From an uncultured Spirochaetaceae bacterium (GTDB lineage: Bacteria > Spirochaetota > Spirochaetia > SZUA-6 > DRHE01), in assembly GCA_964520025.1 (NCBI GenBank), contig CAZFMD010000003.1, positions 1-41,737 on the forward strand: a stretch of DNA of 41,737 bases, in the 5' to 3' direction. The position numbers were made by a program, and so were the translations under genes. Below, piece by piece: positions 14,510 to 39,963 of the stretch. Under the pieces are notes generated by a model. The model worked only from the letters and a program-made list of their open reading frames with translations, ran no database searches and was not told where the DNA came from. Positions within the stretch are counted from its first letter, which is position 1; each line of letters starts with the position of its first letter.

Positions 14510-14526
14510 TGGCACGGCGTTTGCAT
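14510..14526 (+). promoter_or_regulatory. Sigma-54 (-24/-12) promoter TGGCACGGCGTTTGCAT
   Basis: Exact match to the TGGCAC-N5-TTGCA consensus, about 88 nt upstream of GTG 14614. Confidence 0.7.
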
Positions 14527-14613: not shown

Positions 14614-15633
14614 GTGAGGCGATGGCTCAAGCTCGATTTGAATGAGATGCCCTATTCCCCTCCGGAGAATCTCGTCAGAGCCGCTGAACAGGGCCTCAGG
14701 AGCTTGAATCGGTACGCGGATACGGACGCTCTACAACGACTCGCCGTTCTGCTGGCCCAGTATACCGGGGTAAGACGGGAGAAGATCGTGATCGCCCCGG
14801 GCTCGGATCTCCTGCTGCGGGAGATAGTGCTGTGCTTCGCCGGCAGGAGAAAGGTCGTGATGGCCAGCCCGACTTTTCTTCCCACCGCATCGGTGGCCAG
14901 GCGTTTCGCCCGCAAGTTCGTCAGCGTCCGGCTGAGCCGGCCGGAGTTCACCCTGGCACGCGAGCCTCTGCTGGAGGAACTGGAAGAGCCGAGCCTGGTG
15001 ATTCTCGACAACCCCAACAATCCGACCGGTAGGCTCGTTCTGGACAGAGAATTGGTAGAGCTCATTCTCGCTCGACCGGACACGCTCCTGGTCGTGGATG
15101 AGGCATACTTCGAGTTTTCCGGTTTGTCCTTCGCGGGCATGGTTGAAGCCCATGCCAATTTGGCATTGACCCGCACACTGGACAAGGCCTTCGGGCTGGC
15201 CGGCGTGCGGGTCGGCTATATGATAGCCGGAGAGGCATTCTTCGATACATTATGCCCTTCGATTGCCTTCCTGCCCCAGCCGAGCCTGCAGGCGGCCACC
15301 GAGGCGCTGCTGCATCCGGATTACATGTGGAAGAACGTTCAGCGCATCATGGAAGAGCGGGAGAAGTTGTCGAGAGAATTGGAGATCCTGGAAGCCCGGG
15401 TTTATCCGAGCAGCACCAATTTTCTGCTCCTCAGATCAAAGATACCGGATCTGGTCGAAGAGCTGACGGATCGGGGAATCCTCGTCATGGACGTTTCTCG
15501 CCAGCTCGGTGCCGGATTTATACGGTTGAGCGTGGGCACGCCGGATGAGAATGAGGAGTTCGTGAGGATATTTCGAGAAATAAAGCGGCAAGCGACAGGA
15601 CAGGAGAACACCTATGAATACAGTGCAGGATGA
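14614..15633 (+). CDS. Class I/II PLP-dependent aminotransferase (HisC / CobD-like)
   Basis: GTG lies 7 nt after GGAGG. DNPNNPTG, VVDEAYFEF, PLP-Lys context TLDKAFGLAGVRVGY. 339 aa. Confidence 0.8.
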   Translation: MRRWLKLDLNEMPYSPPENLVRAAEQGLRSLNRYADTDALQRLAVLLAQYTGVRREKIVIAPGSDLLLREIVLCFAGRRKVVMASPTFLPTASVARRFARKFVSVRLSRPEFTLAREPLLEELEEPSLVILDNPNNPTGRLVLDRELVELILARPDTLLVVDEAYFEFSGLSFAGMVEAHANLALTRTLDKAFGLAGVRVGYMIAGEAFFDTLCPSIAFLPQPSLQAATEALLHPDYMWKNVQRIMEEREKLSRELEILEARVYPSSTNFLLLRSKIPDLVEELTDRGILVMDVSRQLGAGFIRLSVGTPDENEEFVRIFREIKRQATGQENTYEYSAG

Positions 15634-29172: not shown

Positions 29173-30603
29173 TCAACCGGATCCCTCTTCGATTCTCTGT
29201 TCGCAGAACCGCACAGCCGTCTCCACGGCCTTCAGATTCACATCGATATACTGCTTTCGCTTGATCGAAACGGGAATGATCTGTTTCAGGGTGTCGACGC
29301 TCAACACCCCGGAGGTGTGAAGGTACACGGCCAGAACCACCATATTCGCCGCTCCCGTGAAACCGAGCTCCTTGGCCATGTCCGCCGCCGGAACATAGAG
29401 GGCCTTCACGTCCTTACGCTTTACCTTCCCGGCTACCAGGGAGGAGTTGATGACGATCAGGCCTCCCGGGGCGACGCTCGCTTCGAAGGCGTCCAGGGAA
29501 GGTCCGTTCATGGCGATCAGAACATTGGGAAAGTCCACGACCGGCGATCCGATCGGTTGTCGGGAAATCACGACGCTGGCGTTGGCCGTTCCTCCCCGCA
29601 TCTCCGGCCCGTAGGAGGGAAGCCAGGTTGCGTTCAGACCCTCGTGGGTCGCACAGTTGGCCATCAGAACCCCTGCGGACATCACGCCCTGGCCGCCGAA
29701 TCCGGCGATTTTCACGAACTGATCCTTCACTCTGCCCTTGTGGGCAGCCAACTCCGGCTCCTTCTCGGTGGAGAACAGGTCCAGCAGCTGTTTGTCGCCG
29801 ATCATGGCTGCAGGTGGCTGGAGTGCCGCCTCCACCGGCGGGCGCTCCAGATCCCTGAAGTTGCGCACGGGAAACACGGGCTCCATCTGTTCGATCAGCC
29901 ATGTGCGGGCTTCATGGGGGCTCATCCTCCAGCTCACCGGACAGGGGGAGAGCACCTCTACGAAGGAGAAGCCTCGCTTTTCGATTTGATTGACCAGAGC
30001 TTTCTTGAATGCCTTCCGGGCCTTGAGGATGCGCGGAGCATCGGCCAGGGAAACCCGTTCGATAAACACAGGCGTGTTCAGTGCATCAATGACCTCCGCC
30101 ATCACAATGGGACCGCCCTCGTTGCTGAGGGATCGGCCCCTGGGGGTGGTGGCGGTCTTCTGTTTGAGGATCGTGGTCGGCGCCATCTGTCCGCCGGTCA
30201 TGCCGTAGATCGCATTGTTGATAAAGAACACCGAGATATTCTCCCCCCGGTTGGCCGCATGGAGGATCTCCGCGGTGCCGATTCCGGCCAGGTCACCGTC
30301 GCCCTGGTAGGAGATGACGATGGCATCCTCCAGGCTGCGCCGGATGCCCGTGGCTACGGCTGGGGCCCGGCCGTGGGAGCACTGGATGTTACCCGTGTCG
30401 AAGTAGTAGTAGGCGAAAACACTGCAGCCCACCGGAGAGCAGAGGATCGTCCTGTCCTGTATGCCCAGCTCGCTGATCAGCTCGGCCAGCAGCTTGTGGG
30501 CCGTGCCGTGTCCGCAGCCGGGGCAATAGTGAGTGACTTTCTGACCCGCTGCCTTGCGTTCGAAGGTATCGTAGAAAGCCGCCGGTTTGCTGTACTTAAT
30601 CAT
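29173..30603 (-). CDS. 2-oxoacid:ferredoxin oxidoreductase, fused beta (TPP-binding) and gamma subunits
   Basis: ATG 30603 follows AGGAGGAAA. Beta motifs: CPGCGHG and GDGD...NNAIYGMTGGQ. Gamma motifs: IAGFGGQGV and YGPEMRGG. Confidence 0.85.
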   Translation of the reverse strand: MIKYSKPAAFYDTFERKAAGQKVTHYCPGCGHGTAHKLLAELISELGIQDRTILCSPVGCSVFAYYYFDTGNIQCSHGRAPAVATGIRRSLEDAIVISYQGDGDLAGIGTAEILHAANRGENISVFFINNAIYGMTGGQMAPTTILKQKTATTPRGRSLSNEGGPIVMAEVIDALNTPVFIERVSLADAPRILKARKAFKKALVNQIEKRGFSFVEVLSPCPVSWRMSPHEARTWLIEQMEPVFPVRNFRDLERPPVEAALQPPAAMIGDKQLLDLFSTEKEPELAAHKGRVKDQFVKIAGFGGQGVMSAGVLMANCATHEGLNATWLPSYGPEMRGGTANASVVISRQPIGSPVVDFPNVLIAMNGPSLDAFEASVAPGGLIVINSSLVAGKVKRKDVKALYVPAADMAKELGFTGAANMVVLAVYLHTSGVLSVDTLKQIIPVSIKRKQYIDVNLKAVETAVRFCEQRIEEGSG

Positions 30604-31651
30604 GGATTTCCTCCTGGAGGCGTTCGATGAGCTCCGTGGCCGTGGGCACGATTCCCCCGTACCAGTTGTAGCGCAGGACGGGTATCGACCCTCTAACGGC
30701 CAGCTCCACATCCTCGGCCATCTGGCCGTTGTTCAGCTCCACCACGACCAGCTTGCGGGATTGGTCAGCCAGCCGAGCAAGCTGTTGCCTGGGAAAGGGA
30801 AACAGGGTTCTGGGTCGAAACAGACCGACTTTTAATCCATCTCCCCGCAACCTCTCCACAGCGGTCAGGCAGATTCGCGAGCAGATGCCGAAGGCCACCA
30901 GGATCACCTCGGCATCCTCCGTGTGGATTTCCTCGAACTCAATGACTTCACTTTCAACCTGGCCGTATTTTTCCTGGAGCTTGACGTTATGAGCCCCCAT
31001 GGAGACGGTATTCATGAATATCGAGGTGACCAGATTTTCCCGACTTTCCCGATCGCCGTACAGAGCCCAGGTTTTGCGTTGCCCGTGCTTCACCGCCCCC
31101 GGAAGGCTGACCGGTTCCATCATCTGACCAATGTAGGCATCGGAGAGGATAAAGACGGTCATCCGGTAGCGGTCGGCCAGCTCAAAGGCCCGGTAGGCGT
31201 AATCGCACATCTCCTGCACGGAGTTCGGAGCCAGCACGATGTTTTTGTAGTTGCCGTGTCCACCGCCCTTGACCACCGCGTTGTAATCGCTCTGCTCGGG
31301 CCAGATGTTTCCCAGACCGGGTCCGGCCCTCTGGATATCCACGACCACGCAGGGAAGCTCCGCTCCCGCAATATAGGAAAGGCCCTCGGCCATCAGGGAT
31401 ATTCCCGGCCCGGAAGAAGCGGTCATGACCCGGGCGCCCGCGGCGGCCGAACCGTAGAGCATGTTGATGGAGGCCACCTCGCTCTCCGCCTGCAGGAAAC
31501 GCCTTCCCGCCATGGGGAAGTACAGAGCCGCGGCGTGGGCGATCTCGCTTGCCGGGGTGATCGGGTAGCCGAAGAAGTGGGTAGCCCCGCCCAGCAGGGC
31601 TCCGTAGACGATCGCCTCATTGCCCTTGATCAACCGTCTATTTGCGTTCAT
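30596..31651 (-). CDS. 2-oxoacid:ferredoxin oxidoreductase alpha subunit
   Basis: [30 protein letters not shown] is the classic OFOR alpha N-terminus. 8-nt overlap with the beta/gamma gene. Confidence 0.85.
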
Positions 31652-31880
31652 CTTTGCCCTCCTTGTGCACCGTGATGGCCCCCGGTTCCGGGCACACGTA
31701 GTAACAGAAGCCGCAGCCGGTGCACTGGTGCTGCTCGAAGCGGGCGTACTGATAGCCGAGACGATTGAGCTCGGATCCGATGTTCAGGCAGTGCTTGGGG
31801 CAGGCGGAGACGCACAGACGGCAGCCCTTGCACTCATCCGTTGAAATTACCACGTAGTTTTCAGACATAAGCATTCCCAA
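31638..31880 (-). CDS. 2-oxoacid:ferredoxin oxidoreductase delta subunit (2x[4Fe-4S] ferredoxin)
   Basis: [12 protein letters not shown] and [12 protein letters not shown]. 80 aa. Overlaps the alpha gene. Confidence 0.8.
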
Positions 31881-31958: not shown

Positions 31959-32495
31959 TCAGATTCCCTCGAACACATCATCGACAGCGGCGCCGAAGTA
32001 GTTGATCACGGATACGCTTTCCGCCAGACTCTCCGGCAGAGCCGAGATATCCATGAGATGCCCGGGGCAGCCGAGCTTCGCACACACCAGTATCCTGTCG
32101 CCTCGCCCCGGCAGGTGGAAGAGGATGCTACGCTGGCTGTCGCAATCCGTCAGAGGGCAGGCCTCATCGATCACCAGGTTCGTACCGCAGGTCGGGCAGA
32201 ACGCCTCCACATAGGGATGCTCTGCCGCCAAGTTGGGTATGAAGCTGAACAGCTTGGCATGGCTGCCCCAGAATGCGTCGAGGAACAGGAAGCCCTCCTG
32301 ATCGCCGATGCGTATCTTCATCATCACAGAGTGTTCTCCGTGGATTTGCACGTTGTCGGCGATCAGGCTGTGGTGTTTGGGACAGCTCAGCTGCTCCACC
32401 ACCAGGAACTCCTTGCCGTGTCTGTGGATATATTTTATTCCCTCGGGTAGATGTTGTAGGAAGCGTAGTGGTATGTCGGTGTGTTTTAGATGCAT
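31959..32495 (-). CDS. Hypothetical Cys/His-rich protein (probable zinc-binding)
   Basis: 178 aa. CPKHH, CPTCG, CPLTDC, CAKLGCPGH. No family recognised. Candidate promoter TTGACA-N16-TATCGT upstream. Confidence 0.5.
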   Translation of the reverse strand: MHLKHTDIPLRFLQHLPEGIKYIHRHGKEFLVVEQLSCPKHHSLIADNVQIHGEHSVMMKIRIGDQEGFLFLDAFWGSHAKLFSFIPNLAAEHPYVEAFCPTCGTNLVIDEACPLTDCDSQRSILFHLPGRGDRILVCAKLGCPGHLMDISALPESLAESVSVINYFGAAVDDVFEGI

Positions 32496-32606
32496 CCTAT
32501 ACCTTTACGATACCGCACACCCCTCGGTTGTCAAGCTTTTGCGGTGCTGTTGTTCCGCATTGTCCGCGATATCCGGTCGACCTTTCTCCGACACCTCCTC
32601 AACCGG

Positions 32607-33470
32607 TTAGATCAGGAGGCGTTCGGCGGCTCCGGGATCCGCCAGGGTAAAACGTACCACCGCGAGTTCCGGGCCGTCGTGGGCGGCGCTCAAACACCAG
32701 GTGCTGCCGATCCGTTGCCGCCAGTGTCCGCTCAGACGGGCAGATTCATGAACGTGTCCGTGGAGGGTACAAAGAGGATGCCGCTGTTCGATGAAGCGGC
32801 GTACGGCGATGCTGCCCACATGAACATCCAACGGCGCGGCATCCACGCTCTGCCCATCCAGATCGGCCCGATCCAGGAAGCTCCCGTAGGGCGGCACGTG
32901 GAACAGAACCACGGCCCGCTCCAAATCATCCATCCCGGCCAGCTGCTGCAGCTCCTGCTGGATCGTGGCTGTGGATAGCTTTTCTTCGGTCACAGGGACG
33001 CTTCTCCAGCCGCTTTCCGGGGTGGAGGCTCCCACATCGACGTAGCGGGACACGTCGTAGCGCTCCCAATCCTTGAGCATGAAGGGACTGGGGGGAATGC
33101 AGGAGTAGCCATAGAGGGAATATCCGCTATAATCGATTCTCCTGTTGTGGAGGTACCGCCAAAGCCCCGCCCGTTCTCCCTCCTGCAACGACGCTTCTTC
33201 CCGCCGGGGATCGTCATTGCCCAGGATCACGGCGATGAGTGGATAGTCTTTCTCCATCTCCCGCTGAAGCGAACGGAATCCGTTGGCGAGATATCCCTCG
33301 ATGAACGGCTGCGGTAAGCCCTGAGGCGTCGGCGCTGACATACCGCCGAAAGGCAGGATGTCTCCCCCGAGAAACACTACATCCGGCATCGAGGATCGAA
33401 TCAGAGAGAACAGCTTGTCGAATCTGTCCGTGGAGCCGTGGAGATCTGAAACGAACAGACAGAGGCTCAT
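32607..33470 (-). CDS. Calcineurin-like metallophosphoesterase
   Basis: VSDLHG, FLGGDILP, GNDD, FHVPPY, LHGHVHE. ATGA overlap with the upstream gene at 33467-33470. Confidence 0.85.
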   Translation of the reverse strand: MSLCLFVSDLHGSTDRFDKLFSLIRSSMPDVVFLGGDILPFGGMSAPTPQGLPQPFIEGYLANGFRSLQREMEKDYPLIAVILGNDDPRREEASLQEGERAGLWRYLHNRRIDYSGYSLYGYSCIPPSPFMLKDWERYDVSRYVDVGASTPESGWRSVPVTEEKLSTATIQQELQQLAGMDDLERAVVLFHVPPYGSFLDRADLDGQSVDAAPLDVHVGSIAVRRFIEQRHPLCTLHGHVHESARLSGHWRQRIGSTWCLSAAHDGPELAVVRFTLADPGAAERLLI

Positions 33471-36400
33471 CGCCCGAGGTTCAGCGGTCGGGCCGCATCG
33501 GTTACCGCCCCGATCTTGACGGCGTAGCTGGACTTGCGTTCGATATCATCGTCTGTGACGATGTGGATGTCCAGGAGCCGTTCGCTGCGGATGCCGGTAC
33601 GCATGTAGTTTATCTCCGCGAGGCTCAGGCTCCAGCCGTCGAACCAGGCGAGCAATTCCCGCTTCTGCGCCTCGGTGCCCCGAAAGTGTACCAGCAGATC
33701 GATGTCACTGGCAGCGGTGGCCGTGGCGTTCTTGGTGCTGCCGATCACGTACAGCGCTTTCACCCCGAAACGTTCCGGGTCCAGCTCTCCGGCGATCCGT
33801 TCGGCCACCCGCATCCGCCATCTCCACTGCTCTCCACTCTGGTGGATCGGCTGTTCTCTGCCGATCTTCTCAGTCACGACCGGGCCTCGGTCGCTGCAGA
33901 AGTAGGCCATGGCCTGATCTACTTCGCCGTTCATGGCGATACACAGCACCTGGCCGTCGGTAACCTGGGGAACGTCGATCACCCGGATGATCTCCTGTAA
34001 GGCGGCAAATTCGGGAACCAGCTCTGCGAGTATATTTTTGCTTTCGGTGAGGAAGGATTCGTTGAACAGCACGCTCGGTTCATCGGGGTACAGGGGCAGG
34101 TAGCGGATCGAGGACTCCAGCAGATCCTGGAAGAAATGCGTGCCGAAGGAAAGATCCGGTACGTAGTTGCCCTTCTGCCGGGCGATTTCGATCAACACCG
34201 CCGTATTATTGATCTCCGAGTAGGTTACCGGAACGCCCAGTTTGACATCCCCCCGGCTGCCCCAGCGGCCCGGTCCCATGAGGATGAACTGTCTCTTGGG
34301 CAGCAGGGAGTTCAGGTGTCCGATGGCCCGGCCCACGTTCTTCAGCTGTTCCAGGGTTTGCAGGCCGCTGTAGCCTTCGGGATCAACGTAGACAATGTGG
34401 GTGATTTCAGGGACCAGGCCGTTGGAGACGTGCCTGCGGGCTGTGAACAGGATCTTCTCATTGCTCAGGTCCTTGGGAATCACCGCGGGGCGGATATCGG
34501 CGCTGCCACTCTGGGCGCGGCATTGCAGCAGATAGATCGTTTTATTATCCACTGCGAACTCGATGTCTACAGGCTTGCCGATTTTCTGCTGAAGCAGGTC
34601 CAGCAGGCTCTTCATCTCCCGGGCGAAGCTGGAGCCTGCGATCACCCCCTCGAAGGTGGATACCAATTCGTCCCTTTCGAAGTTCAAGGAGAGTCTGTTC
34701 TTTCTGCGCAGGAGCCCGTCCTGGTGCACGCTGACGATATTCTCGATGTTGGGGTATTGTTCCCCGGCTTCCCGAAGCAGCTTGCGGAGCTCAACGGTGG
34801 TGAAGCCGCCTTTCTTCAGATCGATCACGTCGATCTGACGGGGGGAGTAGTAGAGGGTCTCCTCGACCGTGGTGTTCACGTTCAGCCCGGGCTGCCCCGG
34901 GGCTACGAGCCTGGGGTAGTCATCGGCCAGGCGATCCACCGCCCGGGTTCCCAGGCCGGGCACCAGGCGAAGCAGACCGTCCTCCCTCCGGATCCGTGGC
35001 GACCAGCGGAACTCGTTGTGGCTGAAAGCCACCCCGGAGAATGCGGGAAAGAAGTATCGTCCCACCCGGCGGCCGATCACCTCCTGGATCATAATGCCCA
35101 TCTCCTCGTGGAAATGGATCAGGCCCCGCTCACGGCGATACTCGATCGGATCGGGAGAAAACACCGAGGCATACACCTCGGCGATCGCATCCATGAGGCC
35201 CTCCAGGCGCTGTTTCTTGGAACCCTGGTTGGCCAGGAAAAGGCTCTTGTACTTGCCGGAAAAAGCCGAACCCGTACGATCTTCCAGCAGACTCGAGCTG
35301 CGCACGATAATCGGATGCTTTCCCAGATCATCCAGACAGGCGGAAAGCCAGTTGATGATTTCCCCGGGAAACATCGAGTTTTTAAAGATCTGGACGATGT
35401 TCGGATACTCCTCGCGGATCTGCTCGATGGACTTGTACTTCTGCTCGAGGATCTCTTCCAGATCGTTGTAGTTGAGAAATGTTTGCAGCGTGTCAGAGGT
35501 GACGTACCAGGTCTTGGGCAGGCGGATCCGGCCCAGGTCGGGATTGTCCTTCGCATTACGCTTGAGGATCTGCTCGGCGACAAACAGTCCCGCACTCTTG
35601 CCGCCGAGTCGCCCGTGGCTGTTCTGGGGAAAAATCGTCCGTCTTAGAATATCGTAGAAGTCGTCGAGGTCCGCGTAGTCCTTGGCGATGTCGATGAAAT
35701 CCAGCTGTTCGGTAAACAGGCGATGGATCAACAGAACATTGATGTTCTGACGGGAATAGGGGGTGATTTCCACTTCCTCAGGTTTTATGAAGTGATAGCG
35801 GGCGATTGCATCCAGAAGATCCCCCAGGGAGGTATCCAGGTTCTCGAGGGTCTTGACCAGGAAACCCACTCTGTTTTCCTTGACCCATCTCTGGATCAGG
35901 TCCAGCATCTCCTCGTCACTGAGGTTTTGTTGAGCGATGGAGAAGATCTGGCGGGTCAGGTTGCCTTCGGTAAAGATGGCCCGCTTGCGGCTTGGCTTGT
36001 TGTCATTTAGGATTGTGTCCACGGCGTTGACCTGTCTCGGCGTAACGGTGCCCTCCTCACCCTCCAGGCTGACACTCTGCAGCAGCTCCCTGCCCTCTTC
36101 GATCCCGACCCAGCACAGGTAGTTCAGCATCTTGCGGGTGATTCTGGACAGCAGTTTGGTGTCGCTCTTCTCCAGCAGTTCGATTACGATCTGCCACTGT
36201 TTTTTTGTTTGAACGTCGAGCTGTCGCCGGGCATCGCTCCACTGATCAACCGCCGCCTTGAGCTTACGCTGGAAGAGGTAATGCCCCAGGCGGTCGGCTA
36301 TGGTGTTGAGCAGCTTCTGTTCCTCCGGCAGGAACGGATCCCGATCACCGGCTCGCCCGACCTCCGAGACGTAGCAGACCACGATCCGCCCGATTTCCTC

Positions 36401-36667
36401 TCCCTCCGTCACAACCGAGGCGCTCTGACAGCAGCGGCTGTTTTTGAACCCCTCGGTTTCGTATGTCCTGCCTTCCAGATTCAGATGAGCCCGGCACAGG
36501 GGCGAATACTGCCACCCGGAGGGGATGATCTCTACGATCTTCTGCAGCAGCTCCTCCAGGTCCGAATCGGTGTTGCCGAGAAGTTCTTCGATCTGGTACA
36601 GGCAGTTCAGCTCCCTGGCCCGCTCGGTCAGGTCGTCGATGATCTGCTTCCAGGGTTTTTCGTTCAT
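33467..36667 (-). CDS. Multidomain protein: GAF-like N-terminus, helical region, PPDK_N-type ATP-grasp (PEP/pyruvate-binding family), conserved GRWGS/GTHFF module, C-terminal pol-beta-type nucleotidyltransferase
   Basis: ATG 36667 overlaps the upstream stop (ATGA). PPDK_N motifs: GGKSAGL, IVRSSSLLEDRTGSAFSGKYKS, MGIMIQEVIG, DIEFAV...LLQCR. NTase motif: VIGSTKNATATAASDIDLLV. The tracked 1330-aa ORF extension is an off-frame overlap with the upstream gene. Confidence 0.75.
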   Translation of the reverse strand: MNEKPWKQIIDDLTERARELNCLYQIEELLGNTDSDLEELLQKIVEIIPSGWQYSPLCRAHLNLEGRTYETEGFKNSRCCQSASVVTEGEEIGRIVVCYVSEVGRAGDRDPFLPEEQKLLNTIADRLGHYLFQRKLKAAVDQWSDARRQLDVQTKKQWQIVIELLEKSDTKLLSRITRKMLNYLCWVGIEEGRELLQSVSLEGEEGTVTPRQVNAVDTILNDNKPSRKRAIFTEGNLTRQIFSIAQQNLSDEEMLDLIQRWVKENRVGFLVKTLENLDTSLGDLLDAIARYHFIKPEEVEITPYSRQNINVLLIHRLFTEQLDFIDIAKDYADLDDFYDILRRTIFPQNSHGRLGGKSAGLFVAEQILKRNAKDNPDLGRIRLPKTWYVTSDTLQTFLNYNDLEEILEQKYKSIEQIREEYPNIVQIFKNSMFPGEIINWLSACLDDLGKHPIIVRSSSLLEDRTGSAFSGKYKSLFLANQGSKKQRLEGLMDAIAEVYASVFSPDPIEYRRERGLIHFHEEMGIMIQEVIGRRVGRYFFPAFSGVAFSHNEFRWSPRIRREDGLLRLVPGLGTRAVDRLADDYPRLVAPGQPGLNVNTTVEETLYYSPRQIDVIDLKKGGFTTVELRKLLREAGEQYPNIENIVSVHQDGLLRRKNRLSLNFERDELVSTFEGVIAGSSFAREMKSLLDLLQQKIGKPVDIEFAVDNKTIYLLQCRAQSGSADIRPAVIPKDLSNEKILFTARRHVSNGLVPEITHIVYVDPEGYSGLQTLEQLKNVGRAIGHLNSLLPKRQFILMGPGRWGSRGDVKLGVPVTYSEINNTAVLIEIARQKGNYVPDLSFGTHFFQDLLESSIRYLPLYPDEPSVLFNESFLTESKNILAELVPEFAALQEIIRVIDVPQVTDGQVLCIAMNGEVDQAMAYFCSDRGPVVTEKIGREQPIHQSGEQWRWRMRVAERIAGELDPERFGVKALYVIGSTKNATATAASDIDLLVHFRGTEAQKRELLAWFDGWSLSLAEINYMRTGIRSERLLDIHIVTDDDIERKSSYAVKIGAVTDAARPLNLGR

Positions 36668-38463
36668 TCCAGGATCAATCCTTTCCCGCTCCTCCCGTCT
36701 ATCCGCACGGATAGAGGAGCGGCTGAGCGTACGTGCCGCAGGTGTTCGCTTTGCCGAATCACAGGCTGCTTCCGGAGCCATGCCCAATCGATCGGAAATG
36801 CTTGCGGATCGGATACGCTCAAGTACAGTATGCCGAGGGAGGTCATGTTGTGGAAGAAGTGGGAGCCCTGGCTGAGGTCCGGATTCATCTGTTCGAGCGT
36901 GGTCTCTACGATGACCCGCGCGCCGGAGATCTGGCCCCATTGTACCGGTACGCCCAGCCAGGGATCGGCGCTGCCCCAGCGGCCGAATCCGATCAGTATG
37001 TAGGGAACATGCTCCTCGATGAGGTGCGAATTGAAACGCTCCACTTCCATGGCTATCTCCCGCGTCTGCTCGGCACCGAAGGTCTCGGGTTGAAGGTAGA
37101 GGATGTCCCGAATGTCGTTCAGCACGCCGTTGCCCATGGCGCGCTCGGAGTAGATCAGCAGTTTTTCTTCGTCGAAATCCTCCAGGTCCACTACCGCCCC
37201 CTGGGAGGCCACGACCATCGGCCGCGTCTGAAGAAAACCGAAGCGGCTGTCCCGCTGCCGGTGCGGGTCGAAGGCCAGTGCGAACTCGATCTCTACCGCC
37301 TCTCCCGTTTCCTTCTCCGTCAGCCTCAGCAGCTCCTGCAGCAGCTCGTTGAGGGCGGCGATTCGGCCCTGCAGCAGAGGGGAAAAATCCACCAGGCGGG
37401 GCCCCCTGGCTGTGCCACCCATGCGCAGGCGATCGGAAGCCGCATCGTAGGTCGAACACACGTACCCGAGCGTGCCGTCCGCTTCGGCCTCTGCCAGGGA
37501 ACCGTCATAGAGGTACTCGGTCTCCCTGATCGGATCGTACTCCTTCGGTGTTCCCATGAACACCGACCAGAAGCGGGTCTGGGTGTTCTTCAGAAGGTCC
37601 GCGATCGAAGAGTACGGAGGCAGGGCCCGGGGCAGGGCGGGGCTGTAGCTCCACACCCGCCCCCCGTCCACGATGGTCTTCCCCAATCCCAGAGCCAGGT
37701 TTACCACCCCCTCCCGGGCATCGGCGTTGCCCATCGGATAGAAGTTGTACGAGCGGGCTACACCGGAGATTGTGGGGTAGTAGCGATCTGCGAAGCGGTA
37801 GCCGACCACCTCCTGAATGATCACCGCCATCCGTTCTTCCCTGATGTCTCTGCCGATGGCGCTGAAGTACTGCCGGGCGGCTCGATAGTAGGTGGAAGCG
37901 TAGACAACCTTGATCGCCTCCACCAGCCTGCGGAAGCGGCTCTCCGGGTCCGGTTGATTGTTGGGGATCATCTTGGTCTCATACACCCCGGCAAACGGCT
38001 GGTACAGGGAATCCTCTAAAAGACTTGAGGAGCGGATGGCCAGGGGTTCGTGAATGGAACCGATCAGGGACAGCAGATCTCCGACCACGGTGGGTGGGAG
38101 GTCGGCTTTCTGGAAGACATGAGCCTTGCGCTCGTCCTCCATCTCCGAGAGCGCCACCTCGTAGAGGTTGTTGAGCTTCATGAACTCCTCGAACACCCCG
38201 GTCAGCAGTACGGTCATGCGAGGGATCGAGATTCGGATATCCTGGAACAACCCTCCGGGAAAGGCACGGTCCAGGCTGGAGTTGATCGATACCAGGCCCG
38301 CCGCCTTGCCTCCGGTTTCTCCCTTGCCGATGTAGGTAAACTCATCCGCAGCCCCGCGCGCCTGCCGTGAGCTGCGTGAGCTACGCTTAAAGCGTACGAC
38401 GCCTTCCGGCGGAGAGCTAGGCTCCGCAGGTTCGGTTTTGGGTTTTTTCTCCGCTCCGGCCAT
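36664..38463 (-). CDS. PPDK_N-type ATP-grasp protein (PEP/pyruvate-binding family) with a GRWGS/GSHFF C-terminal module and no recognisable swivel or PEP-binding domain
   Basis: GGKAAGL, LAIRSSSLLEDSLYQPFAGVYETK, MAVIIQEVVG, VEIEFALAF...FLQTRP. C-terminal GFGRWGSADPWLGVPV...LSQGSHFF. Confidence 0.75.
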   Translation of the reverse strand: MAGAEKKPKTEPAEPSSPPEGVVRFKRSSRSSRQARGAADEFTYIGKGETGGKAAGLVSINSSLDRAFPGGLFQDIRISIPRMTVLLTGVFEEFMKLNNLYEVALSEMEDERKAHVFQKADLPPTVVGDLLSLIGSIHEPLAIRSSSLLEDSLYQPFAGVYETKMIPNNQPDPESRFRRLVEAIKVVYASTYYRAARQYFSAIGRDIREERMAVIIQEVVGYRFADRYYPTISGVARSYNFYPMGNADAREGVVNLALGLGKTIVDGGRVWSYSPALPRALPPYSSIADLLKNTQTRFWSVFMGTPKEYDPIRETEYLYDGSLAEAEADGTLGYVCSTYDAASDRLRMGGTARGPRLVDFSPLLQGRIAALNELLQELLRLTEKETGEAVEIEFALAFDPHRQRDSRFGFLQTRPMVVASQGAVVDLEDFDEEKLLIYSERAMGNGVLNDIRDILYLQPETFGAEQTREIAMEVERFNSHLIEEHVPYILIGFGRWGSADPWLGVPVQWGQISGARVIVETTLEQMNPDLSQGSHFFHNMTSLGILYLSVSDPQAFPIDWAWLRKQPVIRQSEHLRHVRSAAPLSVRIDGRSGKGLILE

Positions 38464-38531: not shown

Positions 38532-39818
38532 CTACACCCAACCCCGTTCCCGGCAGGACTGGGCTACCCGGTTGATGGCGATCACGTAGGCGGCGTCGCG
38601 CATGTAAAGCTCTTTGCTGCGAGCCAACTCGGATACGTCCAAAAATGCACCTGTCATGCGCGTGTCGAGCCTGCCCAGTACCTCGTCCTTTTCCCAGAAG
38701 TAGTTCATATTGCACTGCACCTGCTCAAAATAGCTGCAGGTCACTCCTCCGGCGTTGGCCAGGAAATCGGGAATAACGAAGATTTTACGTTTGCGGATGG
38801 CCTGATCCGCTTCCGGTGTGGTGGGACCGTTGGCTCCTTCGGCGATCACCTTCACCGAAGAGGGTATCTTGTCGACGTTTTCCCCGTTGATCTGATTCTC
38901 CAGGGCGCAGGGAAGAAGAAGGTCCACCTCTTGCTCCAGCCAGGCCTCCCCCGGAAGCACCTCGTAGCCCGCCTCTTGGGCTTTGTCTTTGTCGATGCCA
39001 CCGTATCTGTCTGTGATCTCGAGCAACTGATCCAGGTCGATCCCTTGCTTGCGGCGATAGCTGTAGGACTTCTGATCATTCTGATCCCAGCAGGCCACGC
39101 AGGTTACGGTACCGCCGAGCTGCTGGTACAGACGTATGGCGTAGCGGCCCACGTTTCCGAATCCCTGCACGCTGGCGGTTGTCGATTCGATGCGGATGTC
39201 GAGTTCTTTGAGAGCCTCCCGGACCGTGAAGATGATCCCGTAGCCGGTGGCTTCGGTTCTGCCCAACGAACCGCCCATGCCCACGGGCTTGCCGGTGATC
39301 ACTCCCGGATACCTGCCCCCGGTAATGGTCTCGTATTCGTCCAGCATCCAGAGCATGTGCTGGGCGTTGGTCATCACGTCCGGAGCGGGAACATCCCGCA
39401 CCGGCCCGATATCCCGGGCCAGCTGCCGGATCCAGCCCCGGCAGATCTGTTCCTGCTCCCGGAGACTCAGGTTGTGGGGATCACAGATCACCCCCCCCTT
39501 GCCTCCGCCCAGGGGAATATCCACCACCGAGCACTTCCAGGTCATCCACATGGCCAGGGCGCGCACGCCATCGGCGGTTTCCAGGGGGTGGAAACGGATT
39601 CCTCCCTTGGCCGGTCCCCGAGCATCGTTGTGCTGGATGCGGAAGCCCCGAAAGACCCGGGCGCTGCCGTCGTCCATGCGCACCGGGATCGCGATGTGGT
39701 ACTCCCGCACGGGAAAACGCAGAAGATCGCGCGTAGATTGTTCCAGTTCGAGTATGTCCGCCACCTGATCGAACTGCTTCTGGGCCATGTGAAAGGGGTT
39801 GTAAGCTGGTTTCGCCAT
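38532..39818 (-). CDS. gdhA: Glutamate dehydrogenase
   Basis: ATG 39818 lies 8 nt after GGAGG. GPAKGGIRFHP, catalytic loop IPLGGGKGG, dinucleotide fold VQGFGNVG. Confidence 0.9.
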   Translation of the reverse strand: MAKPAYNPFHMAQKQFDQVADILELEQSTRDLLRFPVREYHIAIPVRMDDGSARVFRGFRIQHNDARGPAKGGIRFHPLETADGVRALAMWMTWKCSVVDIPLGGGKGGVICDPHNLSLREQEQICRGWIRQLARDIGPVRDVPAPDVMTNAQHMLWMLDEYETITGGRYPGVITGKPVGMGGSLGRTEATGYGIIFTVREALKELDIRIESTTASVQGFGNVGRYAIRLYQQLGGTVTCVACWDQNDQKSYSYRRKQGIDLDQLLEITDRYGGIDKDKAQEAGYEVLPGEAWLEQEVDLLLPCALENQINGENVDKIPSSVKVIAEGANGPTTPEADQAIRKRKIFVIPDFLANAGGVTCSYFEQVQCNMNYFWEKDEVLGRLDTRMTGAFLDVSELARSKELYMRDAAYVIAINRVAQSCRERGWV

Positions 39819-39963
39819 TGACAATTCCTCCACTAATATTTCAACAAATATTTGAAAACCAATTTGAATTTATACCGCCCTGTTCTATTTGTCAAGAATA
39901 TATTCTGAACTTAGGCGCAGCGACTACAATATTGTCCGTGGTTTCTGCGTCTGTACTGACAGG

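Follow-up and report, generated by a model that had tools for sequence, protein, structure and literature searches.

The window analysed, by which we mean the whole stretch of 41,737 nucleotides from an uncultured Spirochaetaceae bacterium, contains a cluster of four consecutive genes on the minus strand. The first gene of the conserved cluster encodes glutamate dehydrogenase, GDH (38532..39818), with 428 aa from the ATG at 39818 and a reading frame that is extendable to a GTG at 39833. It is followed by gene A (36664..38463, 599 aa), encoding a PPDK_N ATP-grasp and a C-terminal alpha/beta domain, gene B (33467..36667, 1066 aa), encoding a five-part protein, and gene C (32607..33470, 287 aa), encoding a metallophosphoesterase. 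A, B and C were defined from the list of open reading frames, C also from Pfam, and the parts of B from Pfam, an alignment of homologues and a structural model. B is contained in a long open reading frame (33467..37459), and its start was placed at the ATG at 36667 (MNEKPW...) by aligning the N-termini of homologues. The first-pass annotation ended at position 38463 and so missed the co-conserved GDH gene directly upstream.

A and B share an ATGA stop/start overlap (36664..36667, minus strand, ggaATGAacg), as do B and C (33467..33470, minus strand, gcgATGAgcc). The first-pass annotation had described three minus-strand genes coupled in translation through these overlaps. Its coordinates and both overlaps are exact, but coupling did not stand as a conserved feature: in other genomes A and B are about 5–110 nt apart or are fused, and A-B fusion proteins of about 1630 aa occur. 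It is thus the adjacency of A and B that is conserved, and the ATGA overlaps belong to this lineage. A candidate promoter of the GDH-A-B-C unit, TTGACA-17-TAAATT (39867..39895, minus strand), lies just upstream of GDH; it agrees with the sigma-70-like consensus at 10 of 12 positions, a consensus match alone and not functional evidence. No convincing terminator was seen between the genes in a scan of the four-gene region. A sigma-54 promoter upstream of GDH, an idea that came from NtrC-type regulators at other loci, was rejected, as there is no good match nearby and matches overall are no more frequent than expected by chance. Gene D (31959-32495) was likewise rejected as a part of the system, having no homologue in 80 loci. 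Downstream in the window a 2-oxoacid:ferredoxin oxidoreductase is encoded, a context of amino-acid catabolism.

Both large proteins match Pfam PPDK_N (PF01326), A at residues 50-433 (E 4e-33) and B at residues 353-732 (E 2.5e-57), which bears out the ATP-grasp assignment made before. The ATP-grasp spans about residues 45-433 of A and residues 350-732 of B (34472..35620, minus strand), where the conserved catalytic residues are K357, R456, E462 D463, Q528, E703 and Q715 R717. The two proteins are paralogs; A 48-548 aligns to B 352-857 with 28% identity (E 1e-43). All motifs quoted in the first-pass annotation were found, namely GGKAAGL / GGKSAGL, RSSSLLED, IIQE / MIQE, LGNDD, LNCLYQIEELL and IIPSGWQYSPLCRAHL. 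Among 35 homologues of A the residues G51 G52 K53, R144 S145 S146, E150 D151, Q217 E218, E391 E393, Q412, G492-G497 and H535 F536 F537 are invariant, and the signature columns of the ATP-grasp and nucleotidyltransferase of B are invariant in 50 sequences. The best Foldseek matches of the B model are rifampin phosphotransferase (5hv3, E 4.6e-11), HpeI (9goj, E 2e-7) and PPDK (about 1e-4); the alignment to 5hv3 spans only about 400 columns, corresponding to the ATP-grasp.

Behind the ATP-grasp both proteins carry a second alpha/beta domain, at about residues 434-599 of A (GFGRWGS and GSHFFHN) and at residues 733-925 of B (33893..34471, minus strand), where GPGRWGSRGD follows a strand in the model and the invariant His844, in SFGTHFFQDL, lies at the N-terminus of a helix. 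The signature common to A and B is GxGRWG[ST] plus G[ST]HFF; of 150 family representatives, 131-136 have both motifs, the second offset from the first by a constant 40-44 residues. The domain is modelled with confidence (pLDDT 88.5, pTM 0.88). Its model has no match among PDB folds (top one E 0.036, TM 0.24), its profile finds nothing among PDB sequences at E<=10, and it belongs to no Pfam family. The domain is previously undescribed and occupies the place that the swivel domain has in PpsA, PPDK and rifampin phosphotransferase. The swivel phosphohistidine domain itself (PEP-utilizers PF00391; GGxTSHAA) is absent from A and B, both in Pfam searches that included isolated segments at E<=10 and in NCBIfam, and so is the PEP/pyruvate TIM barrel (PF02896), with no Pfam or NCBIfam coverage past the ATP-grasp and PEP synthase/PPDK equivalog scores of 14-58 bits where the cut-offs are 456-1063. 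This agrees with the first-pass annotation, which had seen neither. That the domain is a cryptic swivel domain was ruled out by fold and sequence; only a local [ST]-H-F-F resembles TSHAA. We regard it as a candidate phosphoryl carrier or binding domain.

A and B thus have the PPDK_N ATP-grasp of PEP synthase, PPDK and rifampin phosphotransferase, with the nucleotide-binding residues of the family, but differ from these enzymes in the novel domain that follows and in having no swivel, barrel or rifampin-binding domain; the sensor and nucleotidyltransferase domains and the linkage to GDH are found only on the side of the module. Against the NCBIfam model for rifampin phosphotransferase (RIF_Ptrans_rph) they score 18.5 and 36 bits with a cut-off of 999, and so fall outside that family. 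There is also a likeness to phenylphosphate synthase PpsA/PpsB and to HpeH/HpeI of Rhodococcus, in which two neighbouring genes each encode part of the activity and, for HpeI (9goj), the ATP-grasp is similar. There, the ATP-grasp makes up one subunit and the swivel His and the substrate site are on the other, whereas here the ATP-grasp is in both A and B and the swivel in neither.

The N-terminus of B (residues 1-135; 36263..36667, minus strand) is a putative sensor module consisting of a long helix and a small alpha/beta part, with the motifs ERAxELNCLY, IPxGWQY and FLxEExxLL. It had been called GAF-like before. The Pfam GAF match stays under threshold (E 0.016, 16.2 bits, cut-off 22.4), while Foldseek matches the B model to GAF structures with probability 1.00 and weak E values (6oei, a GAF-domain fusion, E 0.044; 8w26, GAF-PHY, E 0.12) and to CodY (8c7t, E 0.076, probability 0.94). 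The region has only 4 strands in the model, and we keep the name GAF-like with this reservation. The same domain also heads histidine kinases adjoining GDH in two loci (L061 and L046), where the kinases are paired with regulators of the NtrC type and lie upstream of the same GDH. An all-helical linker (residues 136-349; 35621..36262, minus strand), delimited by the secondary structure of the model and without a Pfam family, connects the sensor to the ATP-grasp.

B ends in a minimal MNT-type pol-beta nucleotidyltransferase (residues 945-1066; 33470..33835, minus strand; NTP_transf_2, Polbeta). The NTP_transf_2 match at residues 965-1008 (E 1e-5, 26 bits) is above the cut-off of 21, in support of the earlier assignment; the spacing given then, GS-x11-DID, is actually GS-x10-DID (G976, S977, x10, D988-I-D990). 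All of 50 homologues keep G976, S977, D988 and D990, and also D1033, by position the candidate third carboxylate, and B thereby shows the pol-beta/MNT pattern hG[GS]-x9-13-[DE]h[DE]h with such a carboxylate. Foldseek matches are 2rff, 8xeh and 1wot. The closest named relative is MntA_antitoxin in NCBIfam, at E 1e-3 and 19 bits against a cut-off of 60. In MntA-HepT (MNT-HEPN, type VII toxin-antitoxin) there is likewise a minimal nucleotidyltransferase with GS...DxD, to which the matches are weak; B differs in that the domain is fused to a 940-residue multidomain protein and has no HEPN partner, no HEPN gene being found in the window cluster among open reading frames and with Pfam. As the signature residues of the ATP-grasp, the C-terminal domain and the nucleotidyltransferase are invariant, A and B are probably active enzymes, as judged from sequence.

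C was said to be a calcineurin-type phosphoesterase with GNDD in place of GNH[DE], and so it proved: Pfam Metallophos is matched at E 2e-9 (38.4 bits, cut-off 21.5), and the metal-ligand motifs DxH, GD, GNDD, H and GHxH can be read directly, four of the five being canonical. The sole, weak PDB sequence match is aq_1956 (2yvt). C resembles metallophosphoesterases of that type in the domain and in these four motifs, and differs from them by GNDD and by its specific place beside ATP-grasp proteins. The C family is large, its members being 55-60% identical across phyla, and they lie beside A/B or beside a receiver-bearing paralog of these. C is present in 36 of 64 loci (absent from ~44%), usually on the opposite strand. 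All three C homologues used as starting points sit by GDH-A-B.

A scan of species-representative genomes gave at least 587 matching stretches; the A-type core comprises about 5,000 clusters at 50% identity. The GDH of the window matches Thermococcus GDH (1euz, E 1.7e-125) and the GdhA_Arch model (467 bits). In 57 of 63 informative loci (~90%), from more than 10 phyla, the gene immediately upstream of the module, in the same orientation, encodes a GDH that is 57-79% identical to it. These loci come from Spirochaetota, Bacteroidota/Ignavibacteria, Calditrichota, Cloacimonadota, Zixibacteria, Acidobacteriota, Planctomycetota, Gemmatimonadota and others. A is found in 47 of the 63, and in 12 loci without A the GDH gene abuts B directly; B is about 50-55% identical across phyla. 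One locus (L085) has a gene with a glutamate synthase domain upstream of GDH. The his operon genes downstream in Ignavibacteria loci were rejected as a part of the system, since they reflect local synteny only. Compared with Thermococcus GDH, the linked GDHs share a ~10-residue insertion with an invariant Trp. The GDH alignment showed no residue that is invariant, particular to the linked GDHs and an obvious site for modification; no invariant Ser, Thr or Tyr stands out.

A sister family combines a receiver domain, an ATP-grasp and the same C-terminal domain in proteins of about 990-1080 aa, and Pfam identifies Response_reg in the paralogs. These proteins adjoin a class-I GDH that is 31-35% identical to the first GDH, often followed by C. 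In locus L081 a GAF + HD-GYP-type protein heads an operon with a receiver-bearing paralog and C. One receiver-bearing paralog lies on a partial MAG fragment of Fervidobacterium sp.

Taken together, we conclude that A, B and C form the downstream end of a widespread uncharacterised cluster, GDH-A-B-(C), whose neighbourhoods keep the genes together, with C in about half of the loci. We found no description of it in the literature under the themes PPDK_N, nucleotidyltransferase, metallophosphoesterase and GDH, nor a characterised system of this composition in NCBIfam or PADLOC, which is in line with the first-pass annotation. The linkage to GDH, together with the sister family and its second GDH class, makes GDH the probable target of the module, which now reads as a system dedicated to GDH and no longer as a generic modifier.

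We tentatively read GDH-A-B-(C) as a signal-controlled covalent-modification switch acting on GDH, to which we give a little less than an even chance; every chemical step, as well as GDH as substrate, is something we infer. Such a switch would build on what was observed in the analysis, that is, gene order, domains, conserved catalytic residues, the missing swivel and barrel, the new C-terminal fold, the GDH linkage, the fusions and the shared sensor. B would be the sensor-bearing core, with the GAF-like module reading a small-molecule signal and the MNT-type nucleotidyltransferase as a second catalytic output. A signal at the GAF-like domain, or at the receiver domain in the sister family, would gate the ATP-grasp, which would move a phosphoryl group from ATP to the invariant His of the C-terminal domain. 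From there it would be handed on to the neighbouring GDH, with the MNT-type domain possibly acting as a second writer that nucleotidylylates GDH or a partner. C would take the mark off. Overall, GDH would be switched reversibly after translation, in a manner functionally analogous to the action of GlnE, the glutamine synthetase adenylyltransferase, or of AceK, the isocitrate dehydrogenase kinase/phosphatase. The analogy to GlnE, GlnD and AceK, each a signal-responsive modifier dedicated to one enzyme of central metabolism, is functional only, as A, B and C match none of their families in Pfam or NCBIfam, and the proposed target here is GDH. GlnE and GlnD use a pol-beta-fold nucleotidyltransferase, and MntA AMPylates a protein.

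Several observations argue for the switch: the GDH linkage, also where GDH abuts B without A and at all three loci reached from C; the independent second link between the receiver-bearing family and a distinct class-I GDH; the A-B fusions; the invariant signature residues; the signalling input domains, with the B N-terminus in histidine kinases and Response_reg in paralogs; MntA as the nearest named relative of the nucleotidyltransferase; and the amino-acid catabolism context in the window. On the other hand, gene adjacency fits a metabolic partnership equally well, C is often missing and mostly on the opposite strand, two different writers in one protein, ATP-grasp and nucleotidyltransferase, lack a rationale, and the linked GDHs have no invariant modifiable residue of their own. 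The PPDK_N enzymes characterised so far all act, to our knowledge, by phosphorylating a small molecule or a glucan, and a protein-directed dikinase would be without precedent. The write/erase system proposed in the first-pass annotation was not established; only about one locus in two has C together with the pair, and C is then mostly encoded on the other strand.

The main alternative is that A and B are a small-molecule dikinase in the GDH pathway, phosphorylating or otherwise activating a metabolite of the glutamate/2-oxoglutarate/ammonium node or a cofactor, with C hydrolysing the product or a by-product and the sensors tuning a metabolic enzyme. The characterised relatives found (PEP synthase, PPDK, rifampin phosphotransferase, PigC/RedH, HpeI) all act on small molecules or polymers, and the neighbours are metabolic: GDH upstream, the oxidoreductase downstream and the glutamate synthase domain gene in L085. 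We nevertheless consider it unlikely: A and B lack a substrate-binding domain of the kind that the PEP/pyruvate barrel or the rifampin-binding domain provides, it is regulators that typically combine GAF-like or receiver inputs with a nucleotidyltransferase of the MNT type, and the family pairs with two GDH classes having little in common beyond the reaction catalysed. We also know of no place for an ATP-using step beside GDH in glutamate fermentation or assimilation. That the proteins are simply an ordinary PEP synthase/PPDK or an antibiotic phosphotransferase, as the PPDK_N matches and the source annotations ("pyruvate, water dikinase") might suggest, is effectively refuted: the NCBIfam equivalog models give 18-58 bits where about 500-1700 would be required, and the PEP-utilizers and barrel domains are absent. 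This fits the first-pass view that they are not central-metabolism dikinases. An anti-phage defence cassette is equally improbable in the extreme. B and C have domain-level PADLOC matches to the candidate systems PDC-S09 and PDC-S10, but these cover only generic nucleotidyltransferase and phosphoesterase cores; A has none, A and B find no match in PHROGs, and, unlike defence islands, the cluster keeps a stable place next to the gene of a housekeeping enzyme in many phyla.

Alternatively, A and B could be regulatory or assembly subunits of GDH that, for instance, activate or stabilise the hexamer, using ATP binding or hydrolysis as a switch with no group transfer. Adjacency to GDH, the fusions and the high cross-phylum identity of GDH and B would fit an obligate complex. 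For Bacteroides thetaiotaomicron, Baggio and Morrison reportedly found in 1996 that GdhA was active in E. coli only together with the ~3 kb of DNA that follow gdhA, and that a trans-acting gene was involved. BT1971 has been named a catalase (PMC12596196). Both the ATP-grasp and the nucleotidyltransferase have invariant catalytic residues, and a phosphoesterase co-occurs, which suggests chemistry over binding alone, and we hold the non-covalent role to be quite unlikely. A nucleotide-derived second messenger, made by A and B as a phosphorylated or nucleotidylated signal and degraded by C, with GDH as the effector or merely co-regulated, appears very unlikely. C would be a plausible phosphodiesterase, the GAF + HD-GYP-type protein of L081 would suit such signalling, and pyrophosphoryl handling is intrinsic to dikinase chemistry. 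Against this, Pfam gave no cyclase or synthetase signature beyond the minimal nucleotidyltransferase (Adenyl_cycl_N at E 0.059 only), C is dispensable in many genomes, and the strict one-to-one pairing with GDH, paralog pairs included, points to a dedicated protein partner. The nucleotide signal offered as an option in the first-pass annotation is thus less favoured than GDH-dedicated modification.

In its most specific form, which we regard as rather doubtful, the covalent switch would make A and B a new protein-directed dikinase-like class with the novel domain as phosphohistidine carrier, forming with an MNT-type AMPylase and a metallophosphoesterase eraser a sensor-gated GDH switch in more than 10 phyla. 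The family is in any case a new dikinase-type ATP-grasp branch without a swivel domain, and its C-terminal domain is confidently predicted to be a new fold with an invariant His. GDH stands where carbon and nitrogen metabolism meet. Among bacterial enzymes, dedicated post-translational control is, as far as we know, textbook for glutamine synthetase and not for GDH. An enzyme set tied to two GDH classes in mostly little-studied, largely uncultured lineages suggests that a layer of nitrogen and amino-acid regulation has so far been overlooked, and the covalent switch, if true, would be a GDH counterpart to the glutamine synthetase adenylylation cascade in more than 10 bacterial phyla.

The three minus-strand genes, here called A, B and C, encode a PPDK_N ATP-grasp protein (A, 36664..38463, 599 aa), a protein joining a GAF-like region, an ATP-grasp and a nucleotidyltransferase (B, 33467..36667, 1066 aa) and a metallophosphoesterase (C, 32607..33470, 287 aa). 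All three reading frames are present as claimed in a first-pass annotation made without database searches, and the A-B and B-C junctions each read ATGA, the overlap it had described. For B the longest mechanical ORF reaches a GTG at 37459; homologues begin at the methionine of MNEKPW. The domain calls were borne out by Pfam, which placed PPDK_N in A (E 4e-33) and B (E 2.5e-57), NTP_transf_2/Polbeta at residues 965–1008 of B and Metallophos in C. A and B share 28% identity across ~500 residues (E 1e-43) and are thus paralogs, as had been proposed. Every motif quoted in the annotation was found, the only correction being the nucleotidyltransferase spacing, which is GS-x10-DID and not GS-x11-DID.

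The minus-strand gene immediately upstream of A (38532..39818) is that of a glutamate dehydrogenase (GDH). It encodes a bona fide hexameric-type enzyme (E 1.7e-125 to 1euz) with a sigma-70-like promoter match just 5′ of the gene, and no convincing terminator was found within the GDH-A-B-C cluster. A pattern scan of species-representative genomes yielded at least 587 stretches encoding a relative of B, and neighbours were counted in the best 80 of these loci by ORF clustering and tblastn. The 80 loci are all from MAGs and span more than 10 phyla. Carriers of the cluster include MAGs placed in Melioribacter and Ignavibacterium (L026, L052, L078). Among the 63 with enough upstream sequence, a GDH (57–79% identical) was found directly upstream on the same strand in 57 and anywhere in the locus in 60. 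A is located between GDH and B in 47 of the 63, and in 12 loci A is absent and GDH adjoins B directly. C is found just downstream of B in 36/64 loci (30 convergent and 6 co-directional, as in the window), and is present in 34/48 loci with A compared to 2/16 without it. The three genes also occur together in other genomes. Fusions of A and B (~1630 aa) keep the gene order, and each of three distant C homologues used as the starting point of a reverse search adjoins GDH-A-B.

Compared with the Thermococcus GDH, the GDHs linked to A/B have ~10 extra residues inserted in their dinucleotide-binding domain (CWDQNDQKSYSYRRKQGID). The insertion maps to ~39060-39120 of the window (GDH residues ~240-260) and has an invariant Trp. 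No Ser, Thr or Tyr was found to be invariant. In a MAG labelled Deltaproteobacteria, a 527-aa Glu_synthase-domain gene (locus L085, 17255-18838, minus strand) just upstream of GDH-A-B adds further nitrogen-assimilation context.

On the other side of the cluster, a 2-oxoacid:ferredoxin oxidoreductase set (29173-31880, minus strand; ferredoxin-like delta, VorB-type alpha and fused beta-gamma) follows directly downstream on the same strand and forms an amino-acid oxidation block with GDH. This linkage is lineage-specific and is not kept in other loci. Between C and the oxidoreductase genes lies a 178-aa Cys-rich, zinc-ribbon-like ORF (31959-32495, minus strand; CPxH, CPTCG, CxxDC, CAKLGCPGH) with its own sigma-70-like promoter match (32507-32534), for which neither a homologue in the 80 related loci nor a Pfam or NCBIfam family was found. 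The sole exact sigma-54 -24/-12 consensus match in the window (TGGCACGGCGTTTGC, 14510-14524, plus strand) is ~90 nt 5′ of an ORF for an aminotransferase (14614-15633), after which come radical-SAM and phosphomethylpyrimidine-kinase-like genes. In total, sigma-54 near-matches in the window are about as numerous as expected by chance.

The domain anatomy of B was taken from an AlphaFold2 model built on a 50-sequence alignment (mean pLDDT 78.7). In the model, residues 1-135 form a long helix plus a small module of alpha/beta type, residues 136-349 are entirely helical, 350-732 make up the ATP-grasp and 733-925 a C-terminal domain of alpha/beta type; a disordered linker then leads to a minimal nucleotidyltransferase at 945-1066. 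The top PDB fold matches in Foldseek were rifampin phosphotransferase (E 4.6e-11) and HpeI (E 2e-7), then PPDKs, and GAF proteins and MNT nucleotidyltransferases gave weak matches of high probability. Across 50 B homologues the ATP-grasp residues K357, R456, E462/D463, Q528, E703 and Q715/R717 are invariant, as are G976/S977/D988/D990/D1033 in the nucleotidyltransferase region and His844; the equivalent residues are unchanged across 35 A homologues. Because these signature residues are invariant, both A and B look catalytically competent.

The C-terminal domain shared by A and B appears from its isolated model (pLDDT 88.5, pTM 0.88) to be a confident novel fold. A fold search of the PDB returned no significant neighbour (best E 0.036, TM 0.24, generic Rossmann-like folds), the profile of the domain matched no PDB sequence at E<=10, and Pfam holds no model for it. 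Its hallmarks are GxGRWG[ST], directly past a beta-strand, and G[ST]HFF, at the N-terminal end of a helix. Among 150 diverse representatives of the family, 136 carry the first motif and 131 the second, which begins 40-44 residues after the first. The domain occupies the position of the swivel phosphohistidine domain in canonical dikinases, and its [ST]-H-hydrophobic-hydrophobic stretch locally resembles TSHAA. It may be a non-homologous phosphoryl carrier.

A second family, ~40% identical to A, occurs in Acidobacteriota and other loci as a protein of ~990-1080 aa with Response_reg, ATP-grasp and C-terminal domain in this order. It adjoins a class-I GDH that is 31-35% identical to the first GDH, often with C next. 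Searching 1.84 billion representatives with an A-family profile gave 4,966 matches at E<=1e-3, of which 1,335 reach E<=1e-30. The top 150 are dominated by a ~1000-aa architecture with a ~400-residue N-terminal extension; Response_reg was weakly detected in 3/9 sampled members, and the three representatives on informative contigs all adjoin class-I GDH (two further contigs were uninformative). This second operon type, in which class-I GDH (~450 aa) precedes the receiver-bearing paralog and a metallophosphoesterase, is seen in scanned loci L008 (11166-16903, minus strand), L086 (4477-9864, plus strand), L057, L038, L080 and L090, often convergent with the GDH-A-B operon. In locus L081 (11183-17272, minus strand) a GAF + HD-GYP-type (HD_5) protein heads an operon that also holds the receiver-bearing paralog, a metallophosphoesterase and an AP_endonuc_2 (xylose-isomerase-like barrel) gene, which hints at a cyclic-nucleotide input.

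The N-terminal sensor domain of B (ERxKELxCLY ... IPxxWQYPE in the kinases; without a Pfam model) also heads histidine kinases paired with NtrC-type (sigma-54-type) response regulators. Such pairs lie directly upstream of GDH-A-B in one Chitinispirillaceae and one Cloacimonadaceae MAG, with kinases at L061 3199-4497 and L046 1612-3303 and regulators at L061 4494-5840 and L046 3303-4670. The core of ATP-grasp and C-terminal domain has thus repeatedly been joined to signalling inputs (GAF-like, receiver) and repeatedly lies beside GDH genes, which are of two classes. A distant 555-aa paralog (L030, 12099-16064, minus strand; GGKGAG, PGRLGS, GSHFL / GTHFL) has an OmpR-type response regulator and a receiver-like protein of 481 aa as neighbours, and the ATP-grasp plus C-terminal-domain superfamily therefore reaches beyond the GDH context.

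Several known identities could be rejected. NCBIfam equivalogs for PEP synthase, PPDK, rifampin phosphotransferase and PigC/RedH matched only the ATP-grasp of A and B, at 14-58 bits against cut-offs of ~460-1700. Neither a PEP-utilizers swivel nor a PEP/pyruvate barrel was detected in A or B, even with isolated segments at E<=10, in agreement with the first-pass annotation. With scores this far under the cut-off and no swivel or barrel, an ordinary PpsA/PPDK was rejected. An antibiotic phosphotransferase was likewise dismissed, the rifampin phosphotransferase model matching the ATP-grasp alone and below cut-off; a PDB sequence search with B matched only the ATP-grasp of that enzyme, and one with A matched nothing. 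PADLOC and PHROGs returned generic core matches only, and a defence system was rejected as well. The proteins belong to the PPDK_N ATP-grasp, minimal nucleotidyltransferase and metallophosphoesterase superfamilies, but by the defining tests they are not PEP synthase/PPDK, rifampin phosphotransferase or MntA-HepT. The nearest functional analogy to the GDH-A-B-(C) system is GlnE/GlnD and AceK, with no family relationship. No description of the cluster was found in the literature searched. Baggio and Morrison reportedly observed in 1996 that GdhA activity of B. thetaiotaomicron depends on DNA downstream of gdhA.

On the most economical reading, A, B and C form an enzyme system that is under signal control and devoted to GDH. 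From the observed linkage, domains, residues and fold we tentatively infer reversible covalent modification as its chemistry and GDH as its target. The ATP-grasp would drive phosphoryl transfer to GDH via the C-terminal domain's invariant His, the MNT-type nucleotidyltransferase might add a second mark, and C would be the eraser. The closest named relative of the MNT-type domain is MntA, a protein AMPylase. The first-pass annotation had proposed a write/erase system that could modify a protein or small molecule, or else make and degrade a nucleotide-derived signal; this is supported in part and is sharpened by the GDH linkage, which it had overlooked.

The main rival, a small-molecule dikinase in the same pathway as GDH, draws support from every characterised PPDK_N enzyme targeting small molecules or glucans; we nevertheless consider it unlikely, as no substrate-binding domain was found in A or B and the inputs are signalling-type. 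A non-covalent ATP-dependent partner of GDH and a second-messenger system both seem improbable. That the system is a categorically new regulatory mechanism is less likely than not, but the chance is a realistic one. The cluster nevertheless represents a widespread, conserved and uncharacterised system that is attached to a central enzyme and includes what is predicted with confidence to be a novel fold.
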